Assembly: GCA_951406725.2 (NCBI GenBank)
Contig: OX597822.1
Span: 15,500,001 to 15,564,000, forward strand
Direction of reading: 5' to 3'
DNA length: 64,000 nt
From: Octopus vulgaris
Lineage: Eukaryota
Shown here: positions 3,301 to 49,789 of the stretch, in pieces
How positions within the stretch are numbered: position 1 is the first letter of the stretch
Layout of the letters: each line of letters opens with the position of its first letter
The notes under the pieces: generated by a model
The model's database searches: none
What the model saw: only the letters and a program-made list of their open reading frames with translations
Told to the model about the DNA's origin: nothing
Made by a program: the position numbers and the translations under genes

Positions 3301-4288
3301 CAGGGATCACAACTGCAGTTTCCATTGAATTTTGATATTGGTGTACTTGACTCAATGGATCTCCTCAAGCACAGGGTCGAAACGGTGTTTCTTTACTTGC
3401 CACCTGCACAGGAGTCAGTCCAGCGGCCCAGGCAATTTCCGAGTGCCAGTCATAGGATTGGTTCAATTTCGATTCCGATTTCACTTGCCCCAACAGGTCT
3501 TCACAAGCAGAGTTTAGTGTCCAATGAAGGTAGGTTTGCATGGGTGCCAGTCGTCGGATGAAGTACGATTTCGACTTCGCTTGCCTCAACAGGTCTTCGC
3601 GTGTCCAAGAAAGGAAAGGCATGCATAAGTGGGATGGCTACATCCCTGGCAAGGGGCACGGGATGGACTCATTTGTCCTGCCAGGTCTTCTCACAGCATA
3701 TTTCCAAAGGTCTCGGTCACTAGACATTGCCTCGGTGAGTTCGAAGGTCGTGCTTCACCACCTCGTCCCAGGTTTTCCTGGGTCTACCTCTTCCACGGGT
3801 TCCCTCAACTGCTAGGGATTGGCACGTTTTCACACACCTATCCTCATCCATTCTCACTACATTACCATACCAGCACAATCGTCTCACTTGCACACCACAG
3901 CTGATGCTTCTTAGCTCCAACTTTCTCTCAAGTACTTACACTCTGTCGAGTATGTACAGTGACATTACACATCCATCGAAGCATGCTGGCTTCATTCCTC
4001 GTGAGCTTACGCATGTCCTCAGCAGTCACGGCCCATGTTTCACTACCATAAGGCATGGCTGTTCGTACACATGCGTCATACAGTCTGCCTTTTATTCTAA
4101 GCGAGAGGCCTTTAGTCACCAGCAGAGGTAAGAGCTCCCTGAACTTTGCCCAGGCTATTCTTACTCTAGCAGTTACACTTTCAGCACACCCACCCCCGCT
4201 ACTGACTTGGTCACCTAGGTAACGGAAGCTATCAACTACTTCTAGCTTTTCCCCCTGGAAAGTGACGGAAGTTGTTTTCTGCAGATTT

Positions 4289-5498
4289 TCAGTGTTTATT
4301 GCTCCTGAGCATCTGCCACATACAAAAACTATCTTCCTTTGTTAGCCTTCCTTTGATATTGCTGCACCTCTTACGTGTCCATAGCTTATACTGGATACAT
4401 CTTATAGAGTTTCTACCTACGCCTTTTCTACAGATCGAGCAGGGCCATCTACCTGAAGGCGTTTGTGGTTTGTCTACCTTCCTACTTATTAGGACTTTTG
4501 TTTTAGCTAGGTTGACTCTAAGGCCCTTCGATTCTAATCCTTGCTTCCACACCTGAAACTTCTCCTCCAGTTCTGATAGTGACTCAGCAATTAGAGCAAT
4601 GTCGTCAGCATAGAGGAGATCCCAGGGGCATCCTGTCTTGAATTCCTCCGTAATTGTCTGGAGTACTATGATAAATAGGAGGGGGCTGAGGACTGAAACT
4701 TGGTGGACCTCAACCTCAAGCTTGAATTCTTCAGTGTACACATTGCCAACCCTTACCTTACTTACAGCGTCCCTGTACATCGCTTGCACAGCTCTCACTA
4801 ACCATTCATCTATCGCTAGTTTTCTCATTGACCACCAGATGAGGGATCGGGTGACCCTGTCGAAGGCTTTCTTCATGTCAACGAAAGCCAGGTACAGGGG
4901 CTTATCTTTTTGTTAGGTATTTCTCCTGCAGCTGTCTCACCAGAAATATGGCATCTGTGATGCTTTTCCCTGACACGAAACCAAACTTCATCTCGTCCAA
5001 GTTGACTCTCTTCCTAATCAGTTGGGCTATGACCCTCTCTGTAACCTTCATTACCTGATCCAACAGCTTGATGCCTCTGTAATTATTTGTATCTAGGGCG
5101 TCACCTTTACCTTTGTAGCAGTTGACTATTATGCTGCTACACAAGTCATTGGGTATGGCTCCTTCGTGTATCACCTGGTTAACTATACGGGTGACTAGGC
5201 TATAGCAGACACTGCCAGATATTTTGAGCATCTCTGCAGTAATTCCTGATGGGCCTGGGGCTTTCCCTGTCTTCATGCTTCTAATTGCCTTTACTACCAA
5301 AGAACTGTCAACTCGGATAGCTGATCCCTCTGTTGGGTCGACATTCGGCAGACTCTCTTTATCCCATTCATTTTCTTTATTCAGCAACCTTTCATAGCGG
5401 CGTCTCCAAACCTCTCTCTTTGCATCCTCATTTAGCGCAAGTGAACCATCATCCATGCGAACACATTTCTCTCCTACCACATCACGATTCTCTCTCAC
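4289..5498 (-). pseudogene. RTE reverse transcriptase domain (frameshifted)
   Basis: ORFs 4902-5498 and 4289-4876 carry successive RT motifs, including LLYADDIAL. Confidence 0.9.
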
Positions 5499-5538
5499 AC
5501 ACTGTCTTGCAACACGAAATACCTGAAGTCGTTTGTCC

Positions 5539-6444
5539 TCACGGCGCAGAACATTGGCAAATTTTTTTCTTATCTGCTTCCCCTCTGGCTAAATAGACTT
5601 GTCTCCTAGCTTCCCTTCTGGCAGTCTGATACAGTTCCCTGATACCCCCGTTCTTCCAGTCCTTCCAAGCCTGTTTCTTTTGTTTAATAGCCCTGTCAAC
5701 CACATTGTTCCACCACCACGTTACCTTGGGTCGAGTGGGGACTTTGCACCAGCCACAGATCTGGTCAGTGTCTCTCAGAAAGTTGTCCCGTAGAAACCTC
5801 CAGTTGTCTTCCACATTATGTGATGCTATATATCCTTCTATTTCATGAAAGGCTTCGAGTAATACGTTTCTAAATATCTGCCCATTTGCAGGATCTTTAA
5901 GTTTCCAGACCCTTCTCCTCCAGGCTGGTCTTCTTCTGGGCATCCATTCAACCCTGATCCTGAAGTCGCTAACTACTAATCTATGTTGAGCGGTACATTC
6001 TTCGCCTGGGAAGGTTTTGGCATTTATAAGCAGCGCTCTTTCCCTTTTTCTGGCGAGGATATAGTCAATTTGGCTAGTATGTCTGCCAGAACGATAGGTG
6101 ACTAGGTGACGGGCGGGTTTCCTGAAGTTGGTATTGCAAACAATAAGATCATTTGCATCGCAGAACTCACTCCAGTAGTCTTCCTCATTGCGGGAACCAA
6201 AACCATAGCCTCCATGTATGCCATGGAAGCCCCCTGCACGTTGTCCAACATGTCCATTGAAATCACCAGCCACAAAAAGAAGGTCTCTGTCGTTCGTCAA
6301 CGAGTTAGTCTGCAATAGAGTGTCATAGAATCGGTCTTTCTTCCCCTCCGGTAGCCCCGGTTGAGGGGCATAGGCCGAGATAATGGTAACTGAGCTATGG
6401 TGAAGCACTAATCTAATCTTAAGTACTCTGTCACATACTCTGAC
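5539..6444 (-). pseudogene. RTE apurinic-type endonuclease and linker (5'-truncated)
   Basis: TIISAYAPQ, VAGDFNGHVG, SQIDYILAR and QHRLVVSD motifs. Confidence 0.9.
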
Positions 6445-7420
6445 TAGAGAATGAAGGTAGAAATAAGATATATAAAGATATTGTAGTTGCAGTTCCACTT
6501 GTCAAGGGAAATGGTGTAAAGAAGTTGTAAAAAGTTCCCTCTACATGTTCCAATAGCAGTTCATTCTTAGTCATTTCAAAGTATGGAGGTGTAGAATCAG
6601 TGTTGCTTGTTCGAAAGGGTTTTGTGGTGTGAATGAAAATTTGAGAATGTATTGGCAGTATTTGTGAATGGATGGAGGGAGGAGAGATATGTAGGATTAG
6701 AAAGAGATGAGGAAGAGAAAATGAGAGGACGAAAGAGAAGAAAGAGATAAAAGGAAAAAAGGACAGAAAAAAGTGAAAAGAGTGAAAAAAGAGGTGAGAA
6801 AGGAGGGTGGTCAAGATGTGCTGGGAGGAACGGAAAGGTGTGGTGGAGGGATAGGAGAGATGAGAGAGTAAGGTGTAAAAGAATGTTAGATATGTGAGTG
6901 AGGGTGATATGACAGATTTGTATTAAGGGATGAGTAAAGAAAAAGTAATGAAAAGGTATGGGTGGCGTGATACTACATATGAGAAACACTAAACTTTACA
7001 ACACTCGCCAGTCATATACGTCATCTCAAAAATTAGAAATATTCCCTACATTTTGTCATGGTCCATAATAGATTCAGGGCTTCGAAGGTCAACTCTTAGC
7101 CTGTAAGTTATGTTTTAAAGAGGCATTCTACATTAAAATACAACTCCTCGACACTATTAAATAAATCTAATGAGGCCCTAAGTACTTGCAACCACCTCTT
7201 TTTTCATACCTTCAAATTACAACACAAATCAAAATGCAACCTAATTAAGCTCACATTATATCTCTACAACTCCCCTAAGGTAATCCCTAACATCCCTACT
7301 TATCTCCATTTTAATTTTTACTCTTTAATTAACACCTCTATCTTTCTTTAAGGATCTCAGTTACTTAACATTGCATATATGAACATACAAGCGGATACAT
7401 ATGTGTGTGTCTAAATGTGT
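6445..7420 (-). mobile_element. Upstream part of family A element, separated from its terminal segment by the RTE insertion
   Basis: Reverse complement aligns by eye to 8250-9230 (ttctcaaattttcattcacaccacaa, atctattatggaccatgacaaaa, catgtatccgcttgtatg). Confidence 0.75.
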
Positions 7421-9304
7421 CTACAGGTATTTTATATACGTATGTATTTGTGCATATACATACATGCATATATATATATATAAGTGCATATATATATACA
7501 ATTAAATATGTATGTGTATACGTGTATATACACGTATGCGTAAGTACCTCTATGCGCGCATATATGCGGGTATGCATGTGTATGTATAGGAGTATGTACA
7601 AGTCTATATATATGCGTATGCTTGCATACATATTCGCATATATATATGTATATATATATATATATATATGCATGAATGTATGTATATATATATGTATGTA
7701 TGTAAACAGAGCTGCATTAAGGGATGGGTAGAAAAAAGGTATGGGTGGGGTGTTACCAAAGTGAGTAGTAATTTTAACAATGAATTTTAAAGGATGTCAA
7801 ATTTCTATAAATAGACGTATGGGATTGTATAGTTTAATGTGATAGTTAGGAATCAGAGAGGAGGAAAGACGGTATAATTACACGTGCGCACGCACATACG
7901 TACAAATACATGTGCGCATATGCATTCATACGTACACACACACACACACAAACACACGTGTATATACCTATATATATATGCACACGCAAATATATATATA
8001 TATATATATATATACATGCATCCTCACGTGCATCTGTAAATGCATTCATACACGCATAATCGTGCTCATATATACACACATACATGCACATGCACAAACA
8101 TACGTGCAGGCGCACATGCGATTTGCCAGTCACTCGCACGCGCGCATACAAATACATACGTATACATATATACACATACACACACATATATATATATATA
8201 CATACATATACCCACATACATATACATACAGAAACATACATGCACACACATTTACACATACACATGTATCCGCTTGTATGTCCATATTTGTATTATAAAA
8301 TGATTGAGATCCTTAATATAAGATAAGGGAGTTAAAAGATTAAAGATTAACAATTAAAATGGAGACAAAATAAAGTCCAGTAGGGTTGTTGGGGATTACC
8401 TAAGGGGTGTTGTGTGATTATGTTACATTTAGATTGATGGTAAAGTTTAAAGGTATGAAAAACAATGGTTGCATGTACTTAGGGCCTCATATTTATTCAA
8501 TAGTGTCGAGTTGTGTTTTAATACGTGGAATGCCTCTTTAAGGCATAACTTACACGCTAAGCTTTGACCTTGTTATGGAAGCCCCGAATCTATTATGGAC
8601 CATGACAAAATATAGGGAATATTTCTGCTTTTGAGATGATGTATGTGACTGGCAAGTGTTGTGGATTTACTGTTTGAGGTGAGCGCCATATGGCTGTTTA
8701 AAATTTATGGTTGAACCTATATAAATAGCTGTAGAATAGTGTAATATGTTGAAGACGGTGCATTTATAAATTACATTGGATCTTCTATAATGGGTTTGTA
8801 GAGGGCAGATGGACCCAGGACGACAGTTAAAATGGGTGTATTTTGGGAAATATTTTCAGGAATGGAGGAGAAAATACTCATTTTGTCACTACTTTCACTA
8901 TTTCTTCACTTTTTCTCTCTTTCTGTCTGTCTTTCTTCCTCTCATTTTACCTTCCTGTTTTTATTTTGACCTACTTCATTTCCCTTCTAAACAGCTCCCC
9001 CCCCCGTCTAACCACAAATACTACCTATAAATTCTCAAATTTTCATTCACACCACAAGACACATTCGAATGAGCAACACAGAATCCACGGCCCCATAATT
9101 TGAAATGATTAAACATGAACTACTTTTGGAATTTACATACCATGTACAGGAAACTGTTTTACCACTCCTTCGAATAATGGAGCTGCAATATCTTTATATA
9201 TTTTATACTTTTATTTCTACTTTATTCTTCTATTTCTCCTTCTTTTCCATCATAATTTCTTATTTCGAACACAAATATTTACCTATATTTAACCATCTCA
9301 CATC

Positions 9305-9352
9305 GTCTCTGTTGAAGGGATATCCATGATATCCCAGAAATAGCTGTAACAC
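9305..9352 (+). ncRNA. Degenerate hammerhead motif (family A)
   Basis: gtct-CTGTTGA-a-gggatat-ccatg-atatccc-a-GAAA-tagctg-TA-acac; core A6 is mutated and stem I has a mismatch. Confidence 0.65.
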
Positions 9353-9364
9353 AATATCTATATC

Positions 9365-9633
9365 AATTGCAGCGTAGAAGGTGTTTATAAGTCATTTAAG
9401 AATCACACAAAAACCGTTAGATTCACTTCAACATGCTCGGAATTTTGTCAGTGATCAGGTCGAGGTCTCAAAGCAACGAAAATATTTTGACAAATTAAAT
9501 TTAAATGTTGAAGTGAATCTAACGGTTTTTGTGTGTTTCTTAAATGGCTTATAAACACCTTCCACACTGTAATTGTTTTCGATCCAGCACACGATCTAAG
9601 ATCAGGTCACTTGCTATGCAAGTACATCTCCGT
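9365..9633. mobile_element. Family B partly palindromic element flanked by a 12-bp direct repeat
   Basis: Homologous to 35162-35443; aatatctatatc occurs at both 9353-9364 and 9634-9645. Confidence 0.8.
9441..9496 (+). ncRNA. Hammerhead-like motif with G3:C8 core (GTGATCA), degraded stem II
   Basis: tttgtca-GTGATCA-g-gtcga-ggtctcaaa-gcaac-GAAA-atat-TT-tgacaaa. Confidence 0.5.
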
Positions 9634-9801
9634 AATATCTATATCTTTTTCATAATAAATGTATAAATGTCCTGAAAACTCCTCACACCCTTATTTTTAT
9701 TACTTCATTTTGTCTAATCTTTATAAGCATGCTAATACAAGACCCACATTAGATTCATCACTCGTATCCCTATCGAACCAATAGTTTAACTGCCGTCCGC
9801 C

Positions 9802-18376: not shown

Positions 18377-18968
18377 TAGTTTTATTTTTATAACGTGCTT
18401 TCACTTCACTACCGAGCGCAGCTCTGTGTGCCTTGGGTATGTGCTGTGATTTGTTGTGATGCTCTGATGGTTATTGTATGGAAAGTGTTCTGCCTAGGAT
18501 GTGTGCAGTGCCTAGTAGTGCAATTTTCTGTATGTTATATGTGTTTGTAAATCCTGGTGTTTTTGTTATGTATTTGTCTGAATATTTTTCTATCATGCCT
18601 AATGCACCTACTATGATAGGAATTGTTTCTGTTTTTAGATTCCACATTCTGGTTACCTCTATTTCCAGGTCTTTGTATTTTGAAAGTTTCTCCATTTCTT
18701 TTAGAGAAACGTTGTCATCAGCCGGTATTGATACATCAATTAGAAAGCATTTTTTTCTTTATGATCTCTGACAACTATATCTGGTCTGTTGGCCTTAATT
18801 TCTCTATCTGTGTGTATCGGGATATCCCAGAGTTTGGTTGCTTTCTCGTTTTCTGTGACCTTTTCTGGTGTGTGCCTATACCATTTTTTTTCTATTGTTA
18901 TTCCATAATGTTGGCATAGCTTCCAACGTATGTAGGTTGTTCCAACTCTGTCATGTCTGTGATATTCC

Positions 18969-18970
<2 letters not shown>
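18374..18970 (-). mobile_element. Short 3' copy of the R4/Dong-like LINE
   Basis: Highly similar to 19058-19655; bounded by (TAA)n on both sides. Confidence 0.9.
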
Positions 18971-19057
<87 letters not shown>

Positions 19058-19060
<3 letters not shown>

Positions 19061-21398
19061 TAGTTTTATTTTTATAGCGTGCTTTCACTTCACTACCGAG
19101 CGCAGCTCTGTGTGCCTTGGGTATGTGCTGTGATTTGTTGTGATACTCTGATGGTTATTGTATGGAAAGTGTTCTGCGTAGGATGTGTGCAGTGCCTAGT
19201 AGTGCAATTTTCTGTATGATATATGTGTTTGTAAGTCCTGATGTTTTTGTTATGTATTTGTCTGAATATTTTTCTATCATGCCTAATGCACCTACTATGA
19301 TAGGAATTGTTTCTGTTTTCAGGTTCCACATTCTAGTTATCTCTATTTCCAGGTCTTTGTATTTTGAGAGTTTCTCCATTTCTTTTAGAGACATGTTGTC
19401 ATCTGCCGGTATTGATACATCAATTAGAAAGCATTTTTTTCTTCATGATCTCTGACAACTATATCTGGTCTGTTGGCCTTAATTTCTCTATCTGTGTGTA
19501 TCGGCATATCCCAGAGTATGGTTGCTTTCTCGTTTTCTGTGACCTTTTCTGGTGTGTGCCTATACCATCTTTTTTCTGTTGTTATTCCATAATGTTGGCA
19601 TAGCTTCCAATGTATGTAGGTTCCAACTCTGTCATGTCTGTGAATATATTCCTTCTTAGCCAGGACTTGGCAGCTAGAGATAATATGATTTATTGTTTCT
19701 TGTCCATCTCCACATATTCTGCAGTTACTTGTAATATTTCTTTTCATTACATGTTTTTGGTAATTTCTGGTGGGGAGGCTTTGGTCTTGTGCTGCAGTTA
19801 AAAATCCCTCTGTTTCTGCTTTGAGTCCTGAGCTTCTCAACCATTGCTGGTATTTTTCTTTGTCTATTTCTTTTGCGTTTAGTTTAGTGCAGTATTTACC
19901 ATGAAGGGGCTTTTCTTGCCATCGTTTTATCATGGCTCGTTGCTGTTCTATTTTTAGTTTGGATTTCATTTGTTTTATAGCTTTTGTTGTTTCTTCATCA
20001 TCTTCTTCTTCTTCTTTGTGTTTATTACGTGGTATGATTTCTTGTTTGTATTTGTCAGCTTCCTGAAATACTGAGAACAGTTTTTTGTTTTGCTCGTGTT
20101 TTGCTGCTATCTGGATCAGTTTTCCTTCCTTCTGAAGTAGGTATTTTTGCAGTCCTATGGTGGTTATTTTATAGTAGTTTTCCAGCTGTATAAGGCCTCT
20201 ACCACCTTCTATACGTTGTATATATAGTCTTTCTATGTCAGATTTTGGGTGATGCATCCTAGATCCTGTCAGTATTTTTCTTGTTTTCCTATCTATTTTG
20301 GACAGTTCATTTCGTGTCCAGTTAAGGATATTGTAGCTGTAACTTATAACTGGGACAGCTAAAGTGTTGATACCTATTATCTTGTTTTTAGCATTGAGCT
20401 CTGTTTTTAGTATTGATCTAACTCGTCTATAATATTCTTTTTTTATTTTCTCTTTCATTTGTGTGTGTTGTGTCTTATCTAGTTCATGGATTACTAAGTA
20501 TTTGTAAGTTTGGCTTTGGTCTAATTCTTTTATTTCATTGGTTTTATCTAGTGTGATGTTGTTACTCTTAACTAGTTTTCCTCTTTTCATGGTTACTTTG
20601 GCGCATTTTTCTAATCCAAATTTCATATCTATTTCTTTGGTAAATCCATGAACTGTCTTTAATAGTGTTTCCAGCTGTTTGTCATTTGCAGCGTATAGTT
20701 TTAGGTCATCCATATATAAAAGGTGGCTGATCGTTTTGCCGTAACATTTATATCCGCATCAGTTCTATTTAGCATATCAGATAGAGGTGACAGTGCCAAG
20801 CAGAAAAGGAGTGGAGAGAGCGTGTCTCCCTGGAATATTCCTCTTCTAATGGGGATGTCTTTGGTTTTCATGAGTCCCTCTTTTGTTTGGAGGTGTAGGA
20901 CTGTTTGCCATTTATTCATAGAGTGCTCTATGAATTTTATGATTGTTGGTGCTACTTTGTTAATGGCTAGTGTTTCGAGGATCCATGTGTGGGGGATGCT
21001 ATCAAACGCCTTTTTGTAGTCAATCCAGGCCATACTGAGGCCTTTCTTCTTTCTGTGGCTGTCTTCAATTACGGCTTTATTAATCATTAGTTGATCTTTA
21101 CAACCATATGAGCCCTTGCGGCATCCTTTCTGCTCTACTGGGAACAGTTTGTTTTCGCCCAGGTGCTTGTTCAGCCTTTGCGATATCACTGCAGTAAATG
21201 CCTTGAACATAGTAGGGAGGCAGGTTATTGGTCTGTAGTTTTCTGGTTTTGTTGTTTCATTTGATTTGGGAATTAAGATGGTTTTCCCCTTCGTGAGCCA
21301 TTCAGGCATTGTCTCTGGCTCTGCTAGTATGCTGTTAAAGTTTTCAGCCAGCTTTTTGTGCATTCCTGTTAGATATTTCAACCAGAAGTTGGGGATCT
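19058..21398 (-). mobile_element. R4/Dong-like non-LTR retrotransposon (RT, CCHC knuckle, restriction-like endonuclease), 5'-truncated, two frameshifts
   Basis: NYRPITCL, WIDYKKAFDS, GIFQGDTLSPLLF, (Y)MDDLKLYA, CRICGDGQETINHIISSC, RHD, RPDIV...EKLSKYKDL; embedded in (TAA)n. Confidence 0.93.
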
Positions 21399-21637
<239 letters not shown>

Positions 21638-34914: not shown

Positions 34915-35095
34915 CCTCTGTATTCCTTATCTCCCCCTTTTCCCTAATAATTCTTTATTTCGAAGTCAAATTTTAACTCTGCTTAACCATCTCATATCGT
35001 CTCTGATAATATCCTAGAAACAGCTGTATGACTATATCATTTTCTTCATAAATGTCCTGAAAACTCCTCACAGCCTTAGCTTTGTTATTTCATTT

Positions 35096-35100
<5 letters not shown>
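34915..35100 (+). mobile_element. Third terminal fragment of family A with an internally deleted hammerhead
   Basis: ttaaccatctca.atcgtctCTGAT[deletion]aatatcctaGAAAcagctgTAtgac...ataaatgtcctgaaaactcctcaca. Confidence 0.75.
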
Positions 35101-35164
<64 letters not shown>

Positions 35165-35242
35165 TTGCAGCGTGGAAGGTGTTTGTAAGCCATTTAAGAA
35201 ACACACAAAAGCCGTTCGATTCACTTCAACATTTAAGTTTAA

Positions 35243-35294
35243 TTTGTCAAAATATTTTCGTCGCTAAAATCCGCGACCTGTTCACTGACAAAAA
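35243..35294 (-). ncRNA. Hammerhead-like motif with G3:C8 core
   Basis: Minus strand tttgtca-GTGAACA-g-gtcgc-ggatttta-gcgac-GAAA-atat-TT-tgacaaa. Confidence 0.6.
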
Positions 35295-35310
35295 TCCTTG
35301 CTGCACGGAT

Positions 35311-35363
35311 TTTTGTCAGTGAACAGGTCGCGGTCTTAAAGCGACGAAAATATTTTGGCAAAT
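35311..35363 (+). ncRNA. Hammerhead-like motif with G3:C8 core
   Basis: tttgtca-GTGAACA-g-gtcgc-ggtcttaaa-gcgac-GAAA-atat-TT-tggcaaa. Confidence 0.6.
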
Positions 35364-35438
35364 TAAACTTAAATGTTGAAGTGAATCGAACGGTTTTTGT
35401 GTGTTTCTTAAATGGCTTACAAACACCATCCACGCTGC

Positions 35439-35495
<57 letters not shown>

Positions 35496-46438: not shown

Positions 46439-46880
46439 TCAATATGGTATATTTATATTTGACATTTTAAATTTGGTTGCGTGTCTACATAAGTTCATTA
46501 GATCACTTCTTTGATTCAAAGAATTATTGTCTTTGAATAAAATATACAGTTTCTCTAATATGCAAAGCTTGCATTTAAAATTATTTCTGTGTGCTCCATG
46601 CCTGTATGGTGCCGCTCTGTCCAGAATGCTCCATGTCACGTTGAAAGGTGGGGTTTCCTTTTCTTTTAGTTCCCAGACATATTTTGCTCGGCTGGTCCTC
46701 TTCCTATTCTCTGGGTATCTAAATGAATTTTTATGTGAATAAAATCGTGCTTTAAATGAAATTTCTGAAGCCCCTGTATATGTCTTGTATTCCGATGAGC
46801 CTTCTATTTGCACCTTGGCTCTATAAACTACTCCTTTCACTGGACATTTCCCTTCTAACGGACAGGAGTTTTCGTTTTTG
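46439..46880 (-). mobile_element. Penelope-like GIY-YIG endonuclease C-terminal fragment
   Basis: CPLEGKCPVKGVVYRA...YTGASE..FKARF.SH...KYVW.LK...W.IL...CKLCILEK..I...LNQRSDL...CRH. Confidence 0.85.
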
Positions 46881-49789
46881 CAGTATGTATATATATATTA
46901 GCCAGGAAGGAGACTAGTATCGATAATCCTTAACAGCAACGCCAAGTTAGGTGGCAGGACATAGTTGAAGTTATGTGCTAACAGCAGACCTGGCCAAAAA
47001 CTTTAAAGACGCCCATGGCCAGATATTAGTATTAAAAGTAGCAATGGAATAAGTCTTTTATCCAATCATTTAGTGTTTTATATATTGGCTCCACTATCAA
47101 ATACTCCACCGTTCCTTAATAAAGGAGTGTTGATGTTAGATAAATGAACTAACCGCATAGTTATCATAGATATAAGAAAGAGATAATTCTATGTTATAGC
47201 TCACACTTGGATTTGAACGAAGAACACAAATGCCGGATGAAATGTCGCAAAACATTTTTTCTCATTTATGGTGAATCTGCCAGTTCACCATAAATAAGCG
47301 CATTTAAAATACTGTCTCAAACTGTAGCTATCTTGCGGACAAAGTAACAATTGTGAAGCGATTAACAGCACGTTTTCTAATAGCACTTGACAAAATTTCT
47401 CGTAAATCAGTAATATGTAATGAAATTGGTAAAGAGTCTAGTTTGCCAATAAGAGAATACCTCACCGTTAACTTCACTAACTGCAAAACACGTCCTATTG
47501 AACTAGTAGGTATTTTATCATTTCTAGGATATCTCCAAATGTGCTCGTTTAAATACGGACAGGGAAAACACTACGATCCGTTCATCGTTATGGCGATTCA
47601 ATATGGCGATTTGAAGATAATGTTCCAAAATGCAATAGCGTGAGCATTTCAAACATGATCTACTTAGATAAATGTGTTCTATTTCGAGCAAGCCAGAACG
47701 AAGTTTAATACTTGTAAAATATATCGAATGATATGATTAGTAATGCGTAGCTACGATCGAGCTAATGGCTTAATGGATTGAATAAGGAGAATGAAGTGAC
47801 TGGATCATAGATTCATTGTTGTGTGAGGGGAAAATATACAAATATATATACTAGTATATTAACAGAAAACGTACATTATTGAGGATGGAATAATCTATGC
47901 GATTTTCACGCTAAATGATTATTACACATTATAATCACCAATTTGAAAGAGGAAAGAGAAAGAGAACCAGTGGTTCGATACGAAGCGCGTATCTATGACA
48001 CAAATAAAATTAAGCAAAATAGCAAAAGCTGAGTAATTTAAGTAACGACTTTGAGATAGATTATTGTTAGTCTCTCCTTAGCGTAATCGTAAACACCTCG
48101 CTCGACAAGCGATAAATACATTGTTCGGATCACATCATTGAGTTTATCTCTCGTATCCATCTGAAATTGGTGCTTCTACTTTATTCATGTTTCTATAGAA
48201 GTAAACAATCATAATATTCCAGACTCATATCATACATTACATAATCATGTAATGGGATAATTATTTGCTGTAATTACATCTGCATTATATCGTGATACAA
48301 CATAATTGATTTTATATTTGTTAAGCAAAATTGATTTAGCAGCATTGAAATTGTGAAAATTTGATAATTAATAATATACCTGAAACTTATTTCTGGACTC
48401 AAGAAAAGTGAATACTTAATACGCTTTCTTTTCACCACTGACTTTCTTTTCCTTTTAGAATATAGACAGGAGAGAAACTTAATGTAAATGACTATTTTCC
48501 TACAGTCTCCATACATTTACTTCAACAGACTAATTTCAACACCAGGAGAAACTCACACCTGTCTATTTGTGATAGAAATTGATGGTCCTAATTTCATACA
48601 TTTTACATTGTGAAAACATCAACTCAGGTTTGTAAATGAGAGAAATAGATCAGTTTAAATCGAACATTGTTAATTAGACAGTGTAACATCAATCGTTTAG
48701 TAATTGTTACATATATTGGTTCCTATTTATCGATCCGTCCACTGACTCTTATACGTAACAGTCATGATATTGGATACGATTATCTATGAACTACTTGCAT
48801 AGCTGTCATGGATAGAAGAAAGCGATAATTCTACATTATAATTACTACACGATAGTCTACTAAACATAGTAAAAGTTCGTTCGTCTTTCCTACCCGAAGT
48901 GAATACGTGATTCGTTTTACAAGTTAAAGATAAAGTTAGAGAAATTGTAGCAATCGATACGCTAACTATACATCCGGACCGTCAACTTGTGTATCACAAT
49001 GTGTTCGACTTCAAATTGCTGGTGTATAACGGGAAAATAGCTTAATGGAATTGACTTTCTGCTCTACTCTTTCTCTCTTTAAGGTTACCAGGTGTCAGAT
49101 TCTTCATTATTTCCAGTAACTTAAGTAATCTGGGAACTCAGAAGCATTCAGAGTGTATTAGAAACAAGTAAACCGTAGTGAACATTGCATTTTCATTGCA
49201 GCTGTTTACCCTAGCTAATGCATCACAGCTTTGTGACGAACAATCCGGCAATTCTTATTACATATAAAATGGATGTTTGTATGTTGCCCCTAATCCCTCA
49301 TCTGGAAGATATCCCCTGTAAACGGATGGAGTAGGATAAAGAATTAAAGCATAATCCTGATTTATATCAGCTCATGAATTCTACAAAACTTCCATTGCAT
49401 CCATTGTCCAGTACTTTGGTCAATATAAAATATTAAATGTAACACCATTGGACATTGTAAAACGATAAAAAATACATTCGAATTTGAAATGGTTCAATCG
49501 ATAGTCATTCATTTCTATCCAGTCAATGGATCAGCATTGTAGCAATGAACAGGACATTTTATATCTTCCTGCATTTTATTTCTACGTATACGACGCTACA
49601 GCAAGCCAGGGATACACTTTTATTACTGTGCTATATTTTGTTAGCTTATTATCTGTCCGCAAATATTTTCATGGGGAAAATAACGTTATGGCCATGCACT
49701 GCACCGAATAGGTTTGCAAACGAATATATAAGTCCTTCTCACAATGACATAAAAACCACTTCTTGCCACAGTTCTAATATTTTTTTATT

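Follow-up and report, generated by a model that had tools for sequence, protein, structure and literature searches.

The segment of the Octopus vulgaris genome considered here is a stretch of 64,000 nucleotides (GenBank assembly GCA_951406725.2, contig OX597822.1, positions 15,500,001 to 15,564,000, forward strand), hereafter called the window. It contains, at 35162..35443, a foldback element that forms a near-perfect palindrome of 282 bp between two (TA)n microsatellite targets (35100..35161 and 35443..35492). The left arm (35162..35304, minus strand) corresponds to the 5' segment of the pseudo-long terminal repeat (pLTR) of a Penelope-like element (PLE), from about +5 to +145 relative to the inferred transcription start. 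The right arm (35300..35443, plus strand) is a second copy of the same segment, with another stem II loop variant. Each arm contains a minimal type I hammerhead fold, at 35243..35292 on the minus strand and at 35312..35362 on the plus strand, with cleavage predicted after U17 (35250 and 35355, respectively). Each arm also ends with the first 10 codons of a PLE open reading frame (ORF) encoding a reverse transcriptase (RT) and an endonuclease (35162..35193, minus strand; 35412..35443, plus strand), at the site called S1 below. The arms are 93.75% identical over 144 nt. An earlier note, made from the window sequence, had them differing in loop II and by a wobble in stem I while core and stems were kept; both differences are there, but part of the 9 differences lies outside the hammerhead.

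In the right arm, stem I (35312-35318 / 35356-35362, one G-U pair) is followed by the core GTGAACA (35319-35325), an extra G (35326), stem II (35327-35331 / 35341-35345), GAA (35346-35348), the palindrome AATATT forming stem III (35349-35354) and U17 (35355). The left arm, with its core at 35285-35279, has the same register. This assignment, already made in the earlier note, is confirmed by the coordinates, by a scan and by RNAfold. The generic minimal-hammerhead scan, which accepted any Watson-Crick 3:8 pair, returned exactly two folds on both strands of the window, one per arm. For the two units of 58-59 nt, the fold of lowest energy consists of stems I and II (z -2.3 and -4.0); the right arm taken as a whole (144 nt) does not stand out (z -0.4). 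Positions U4, G5, A6, A9, G12, A13, A14, A15.1:U16.1 and H17 of minimal hammerheads are all present in the arms. The core reads GUGAACA, and the literal CUGANGA consensus is absent, as is an Rfam match: no hammerhead was found in the 13 Rfam matches to the foldback at E<=10, nor among the best 150 of the 320 matches to the whole window. The extra G after A9 had been held against the fold. That caveat can be dropped, since an extra nucleotide at this place is a hallmark of Penelope minimal hammerheads (PMC4209133; here and below, statements from cited papers refer to those parts of them that were available). It is a G in all 11 families in which the scan gave a fold.

The family to which the arms belong is large. 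The genome has 6,616 matches to the core 18-mer, against 0 for the reversed control, and among the 30 best copies are arms standing alone, inverted ones of any length and an array in direct tandem. The fold with the G3:C8 pair is also found about 1.0 kb past the stop codon of an ORF with RT and GIY-YIG domains. At 13 RT stretches of the same family, the arm was detected by BLAST in 9 and the G3:C8 fold by the scan in 7, and 4 were without an arm. In at least 6 of 20 loci chosen by the 5' part of the ORF, the arm continues in frame into the ORF start, and the window arms translate to its first 10 codons. Locus L134 shows an inverted truncated fragment followed by pLTR-ORF-pLTR, with folds 4,261 bp apart; direct pLTRs on both sides of the ORF are present in L134 and L257. 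This arrangement has been described for PLEs (PMC8557442), and the foldback has the inverted 5'-truncated organization known for them, with arms whose length varies in the family. The attachment to Penelope-type RT/GIY-YIG ORFs anticipated in the earlier note is therefore found. The longest ORF (L117:2468-5545, minus strand; 1,025 aa) has PF01541 at residues 915-1005, above cut-off. The RT motifs of its lineage align to a Neptune-like RT of this genome (E 8e-10, 20% identity), and RVT_1 gave a weak match in 3 of 23 relatives. The closest named protein is labelled Octopus vulgaris (57% identity); no relatives turned up in viral contigs and no useful match in the PDB, where the best hit was a bacterial RT (E 3e-4). 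It is nearly certain that the foldback consists of pLTR start segments of an autonomous PLE joined head to head. It is not a MITE (miniature inverted-repeat transposable element) and not clearly a separate family. Such a start segment comprises a likely transcription start, the hammerhead, the 5' untranslated region (UTR) and the first 10 codons.

Swapping the 3:8 pair was a key experiment for the active hammerhead structure, and the question arises of whether G3:C8 is such a swap made by evolution. A sister family (L121-L125) has a C3:G8 core in the same register, just before the ORF start, with 60% identity in the RT core and exchanged compensatory pairs in stems I and II. This sister is a very young high-copy PLE with intact ORFs of 1,310-1,312 aa (L121:1442-5380 and L122-L125), and its hammerhead has a C at position 9, also seen in L166, and an imperfect stem III palindrome. 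A third family (L362-L386) reads CTGAAGA in 16 of 25 copies and has the same stem I letters as the G3:C8 family. More distant relatives were taken from metagenomic data: among 72 loci, the 17 whose match reached the C-terminus were scanned with positions 3, 7, 8 and 9 left free. A sense-strand fold was found in 8 of the 17, 89-397 nt past the match, and an antisense fold in none, for an expectation of 0.063 folds per set after shuffling; a stricter scan retained 6 of 17. All eight folds are Watson-Crick at 3:8 (C:G in 5, U:A in 3), any pair having been permitted. One metagenomic relative (L165:4970-5020) has U15.1:A16.1 as the closing pair of stem III. In the alignment, all 11 rows retain the 3:8 pair, a result matched by 0 of 500 shuffles, four rows belonging to one family; the families with a fold show three pair types. 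In an RT tree of 18 loci (row L375 being only 43% filled), the G3:C8 family is sister to two C:G families with support 100/100, and the remainder of the branch has C:G, U:A or no fold. Together, the C3:G8 sisters and the C:G and U:A metagenomic relatives indicate that G3:C8 is a true compensatory swap; by parsimony it would be the derived state, because the sisters are C:G and the rest of the branch has C:G, U:A or no fold. Covariation, which the earlier note proposed to look for in the stems, is found at 3:8 and in stems I and II. The central proposal of the note, a natural compensatory G3:C8 hammerhead of Penelope type that CUGANGA searches miss, is supported; Rfam searches miss it as well. 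Elsewhere in the genome, other GIY-YIG loci (L038, L040, L041, L044, L049 and L055) carry U3:A8 minimal hammerheads without the extra nucleotide, so that C:G, U:A and G:C cores coexist in one genome.

Variation inside the G3:C8 family was followed in 207 copies, partly chosen by similarity. The frequent non-CpG variants are located in loop II, at a stem I wobble and in the flanks; none reaches 10% in the core, stem II or stem III. In about 98% of these copies, nothing has changed at U4, G5, A6 and G12-A14 or in the palindrome.

The ends of the copies bear on how they were made. The 3' ends cluster at about ATG+30 (S1) and about ATG+90 (S2), and copies of the sister family end at matching places. 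Arm ends were classed in 128 foldbacks as S1/S2 in 96, S1/S1 in 5 and S2/S2 in 2, with an unclassed end in 25; both arms reach the start in only 22. A target duplication was found in 57 of 122 foldbacks (7-25 bp, mode 12; 12-13 bp in 28 of them), TA repeats only in 29 and neither in 36. TATATA is present at both ends of 56 of the 122. The 5' ends cluster just before the hammerhead. The start motif was studied in 70 of 1,195 matches (the first 30 and 40 of the next 70 listed), a sample that skipped several matches beside known long copies and gave 19 long and 51 short copies. In the short copies, the base before AGAT is G in 31, C, the templated base, in 14, A in 3 and T in 3, with mixed letters and no consensus upstream of it; at the cleavage-site junctions, a G was found in only 2 of 16. 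A single extra G is a mark of a cap. The extra G of the short copies is thus likely to be a copied cap, and the A of TC|AGAT the place where transcription starts. Some PLEs have an intron in the 5'UTR of the pLTR, and a stretch resembling a splice acceptor lies ahead of the arm here, in a region that the covering contigs skip. A splice acceptor was rejected as the source of the 5' ends of the short copies, because no exon consensus is found upstream of them. Contigs from four runs guessed to be RNA, none of the runs listed being on record as such, cover the arm, a kind of evidence that cannot show strand, start or cleavage.

These footprints fit twin-primed reverse transcription and the model obtained in vitro for Penelope (PMC11167929). 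Transcription would start at the A of TC|AGAT, 23 nt before G3. Both nicked strands of a (TA)n target would then prime reverse transcription near the capped 5' end of the element RNA, each copy beginning internally at about ATG+30 or about ATG+90 and running to the cap, which would give copies of 145 or 205 nt. The inserted RNA would be mostly uncleaved. For the G3:C8 hammerhead, the prediction is slow cleavage, either as a dimer or with the help of the element's protein; when it occurred, cleavage after U17 would cut tandem precursors into units and also detach the cap, at a point about 56 nt upstream of the AUG. The window copy itself likely derives from two RNA templates, because its arms carry different loop variants; an origin by snap-back self-copying is unlikely, the arms differing in the loop II variant and at 9 positions. 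This copy is moreover predicted to be inactive, because the antisense arm pairs with the ribozyme over about 140 bp: as the earlier note had foreseen, a window transcript through the foldback is predicted to form a hairpin of -222 kcal/mol in which both folds are buried.

With a probability of about 0.8, we consider that the foldbacks are head-to-head pLTR copies that arose by priming on two strands and that carry a swapped G3:C8 hammerhead predicted to cleave slowly. Taken separately, slow and assisted cleavage is likely. We regard a stronger version as tentative, and as having somewhat less than even chances. It would make this the first active natural G3:C8 hammerhead, fixed in thousands of copies and derived from C3:G8 by way of a broken G3-G8 intermediate that kept transposing and persists in about 2% of copies, in an unnamed Penelope lineage with a long fingers insertion, whose insertions would record the priming of each strand from a different RT start on capped RNA.

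Several observations weigh against these readings. The UUU cleavage triplet is weak. The window copy is atypical, since both its arms end at S1, as in only 5 of the 128 foldbacks. For the G3:C8 family, no intact full-length ORF was found in one frame, the longest one being 5'-truncated, and 9 of the 17 metagenomic relatives lack a fold in the relaxed scan, several of them having short flanks. The predicted cut shows no surplus of copies that begin there (about 83, vs about 58 and about 107 at two control positions; estimates obtained by scaling 16/30, 7/30 and 6/30 loci to 156, 250 and 536 matches). An explicit dimer model gives -25.8 kcal/mol, no better than two monomers (-27.8 kcal/mol). The core decays at about 2% per position, much as stems I and III do; such a rate is that expected of dead copies and by itself gives no sign of selection. 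Finally, the broken G3-G8 core is over-represented: it accounts for 30 of the first 100 of 479 position-8 variants (the mirror change at position 3, for 12 of the first 100 of 287 variants; both are hand tallies). Of 19 loci with this change, 3 have it on both arms, and templates with a broken core were thus copied; it occurs mostly in copies of an older type. This core may be an evolutionary intermediate or a recurrent lineage.

Part of these observations would also be expected if the fold had the same origin but no longer cleaved, and persisted as a structure of the 5'UTR, as a protein-binding site or as a relic of relaxed selection reached through the broken G3-G8 state. In addition to the missing pile-up of 5' ends at U17 and to the copying of broken-core templates, the short copies come from uncleaved RNA, and hammerhead mutants of the anole PLE do not alter insertion in vitro, for which cleavage is not needed (PMC11167929). 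Against this stand the nature of the swap, which restores exactly the pair that catalysis needs, the Watson-Crick 3:8 pair of all 11 families across three pair types, and the roughly 98% of copies that keep the rest of the core and the palindrome. The absence of a pile-up also loses weight by comparison, since the anole PLE has no RNA-seq ends at its cut site either and nevertheless cleaves in vitro (PMC11167929). In that system, the hammerhead needs the element's protein, an engineered C3G/G8C change partly rescues it, two internal RT starts define a tail and both target strands are extended in vitro (PMC11167929). Loss of cleavage appears unlikely, although more probable than the alternatives below.

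It could also be imagined that the short copies form a non-autonomous family of their own, retrozyme- or SINE-like (SINE, short interspersed nuclear element), transcribed and re-mobilised in trans. They outnumber ORF-bearing copies by about 100:1 (6,616 core matches, vs 51 own-family RT rows among the best 150 scored), some loci have units in direct tandem (5 in L005, at least 7 in L254), and long 5'-truncated copies retain the upstream region (240 exact matches) and are possible templates. The arrays are, however, seen at a few loci only, and their unit is the ORF-linked pLTR start rather than an ORF-independent sequence. Moreover, every loop II variant of the short copies is present in long copies, arm lengths vary freely, and the short copies run from the inferred cap site to RT start sites inside the ORF, bounds for which no separate family is needed. 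This explanation is therefore held to be improbable. The non-autonomous retroelement family of the earlier note stands as a retroelement but not as a family apart, given that the arm runs into the ORF of an autonomous element. As for a MITE or a foldback DNA transposon with terminal inverted repeats that would look like a hammerhead by chance, the near-perfect 282-bp palindrome between TA runs does have that look, but the idea is refuted by the link to an RT and GIY-YIG ORF whose start the arm encodes, and has next to no chance given that so few foldbacks have two arms reaching the start, that many copies are single-armed, that target duplications are mostly of 12-13 bp but variable, with no fixed short length, and that the fold covaries across families.

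A second insertion of the family lies in the window. Its direct arm (9434..9633, plus strand; ORF start at 9544) ends at S2 and takes in the 60-nt tail. It is joined to an inverted, 5'-truncated arm that ends at S1 (9365..9434, minus strand), and the whole is flanked by a 12-bp target-site duplication (9353..9364 and 9634..9645). The hammerhead of the direct arm has decayed (core GTGATCA at 9451-9457), two of its five stem II pairs being broken. The earlier note had rightly seen this third copy, but had taken its variant as the sign of a free position 7. That position varies in 4 of 207 copies, vs 40 of 2070 for the other core positions, so that the variant is weak evidence. Both insertions sit in or beside copies of one other repeat (34930-35100, 9235-9358, 9663-9715 and 2740-2822).

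The octopus hammerhead can be compared with those described for metazoan PLEs (PMC4209133), with which it shares the pLTR location, the extra nucleotide between 9 and 10.1, G10.1:C11.1, a short palindromic stem III, the frequent U17, opposite-strand pairs and thousands of solo copies. In that paper, the Fig. S3 rows examined have CUGANGA or UUGANAA, with the consensus CUGANGAH, and none of them has GUGANCA; the octopus core is GUGAACA, and its extra base, a G, is excluded by the consensus. Natural U3:A8 hammerheads were reported there (PMC4209133), and natural U3:A8 only by Perreault et al. (PMC3088659), whereas G3-C8 appears as an engineered variant (PMC3884650, PMC8495972, PMC11167929). In the available literature, the pairs known in nature at 3:8 are C:G and U:A, G:C being found only as an engineered, partly active mutant. 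The Poseidon element PAc of Anolis carolinensis likewise carries its hammerhead close to the beginning of the ORF, with AT-rich targets, both strands extended and a tail delimited by two 3' ends that lie within the ORF start, and its engineered C3G/G8C mutant corresponds to the natural state of the octopus element (PMC11167929). The octopus element differs from PAc in its ends at about ATG+30 and about ATG+90, in a hammerhead that lies wholly upstream of the AUG and in an RT of another lineage (PMC11167929).

Inverted 5'-truncated copies, a tail at one end and a (TA)n bias are shared with Neptune, Nematis, Hydra and Naiad, and an RT followed by a C-terminal GIY-YIG with a CX3CX2C linker with PLEs having a C-terminal endonuclease (PMC8557442). 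With its endonuclease at the C-terminus, the octopus element is not Naiad, in which this domain is N-terminal. Its RT differs in having DKS for DKG, GGAIG in motif B and a fingers insertion of about 50-60 residues relative to the Neptune-like RT of this genome. RPVC, GGAIG and GGPIG have 0 occurrences in the PMC8557442 supplement, where KDHK is present in Hydra. The RT tree was built from relatives alone. The 1,025-aa ORF at L117:2468-5545 (minus strand) and proteins P0002-P0120 possibly represent a clade as yet without a name, whose relatives are numerous in public assemblies. The tail measures 60 nt, vs 30-40 bp described for PLEs. A survey by Lunse et al. in 2017 reportedly lists about 150,000 PLE-linked variants. 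Non-LTR retrozymes likewise have short hammerhead units related to PLE pLTRs, sometimes in tandem, whereas most octopus copies stand alone or inverted, and what they contain is a direct portion of an autonomous element, its first codons among it (bioRxiv 10.64898/2026.07.22.740005). The main text of a 2026 paper on octopus repeats has 0 occurrences of hammerhead or ribozyme (PMC13282606), and a natural G3:C8 was not found in the literature searched, Lunse et al. (2017) and Przybilski and Hammann (2007) lying outside that search.

The literature leaves open whether cleavage is a necessity for Penelope hammerheads (PMC8557442, PMC11167929), and a G3:C8 family beside C3:G8 sisters in one genome provides a natural test of this. 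Searches built on CUGANGA pass over whole families, which may be relevant to elements said to lack hammerheads. The S1/S2 asymmetry, together with the likely cap G, gives genome-scale support to the in vitro model of Penelope priming, and both are a reminder that palindromes of this kind can wrongly be classed as MITEs.

Other elements were encountered. A Neptune-like PLE with a 781-aa ORF, found via PF01541, was considered as the ORF partner of the arm and rejected for want of similarity to it. This high-copy element (L061-L069) also has a second ORF, upstream and overlapping, that reaches 479 aa, and a 5' repeat about 3-4.7 kb away; no hammerhead was reported by the scan on the sense strand of L037 and L042, its two 3-kb loci. 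Foldbacks with an identical central junction and a shared flank recur at several places (L146-L148, L159, L161 and L162), as a composite unit that was itself multiplied. In the window, positions 46439-46897 (minus strand) hold a 3' fragment of another GIY-YIG ORF, which we take to resemble a Hydra-clade PLE endonuclease, and 3928-6501 and 18740-21636 (both minus strand) are decayed non-LTR retrotransposon ORFs with RT and endonuclease fragments.
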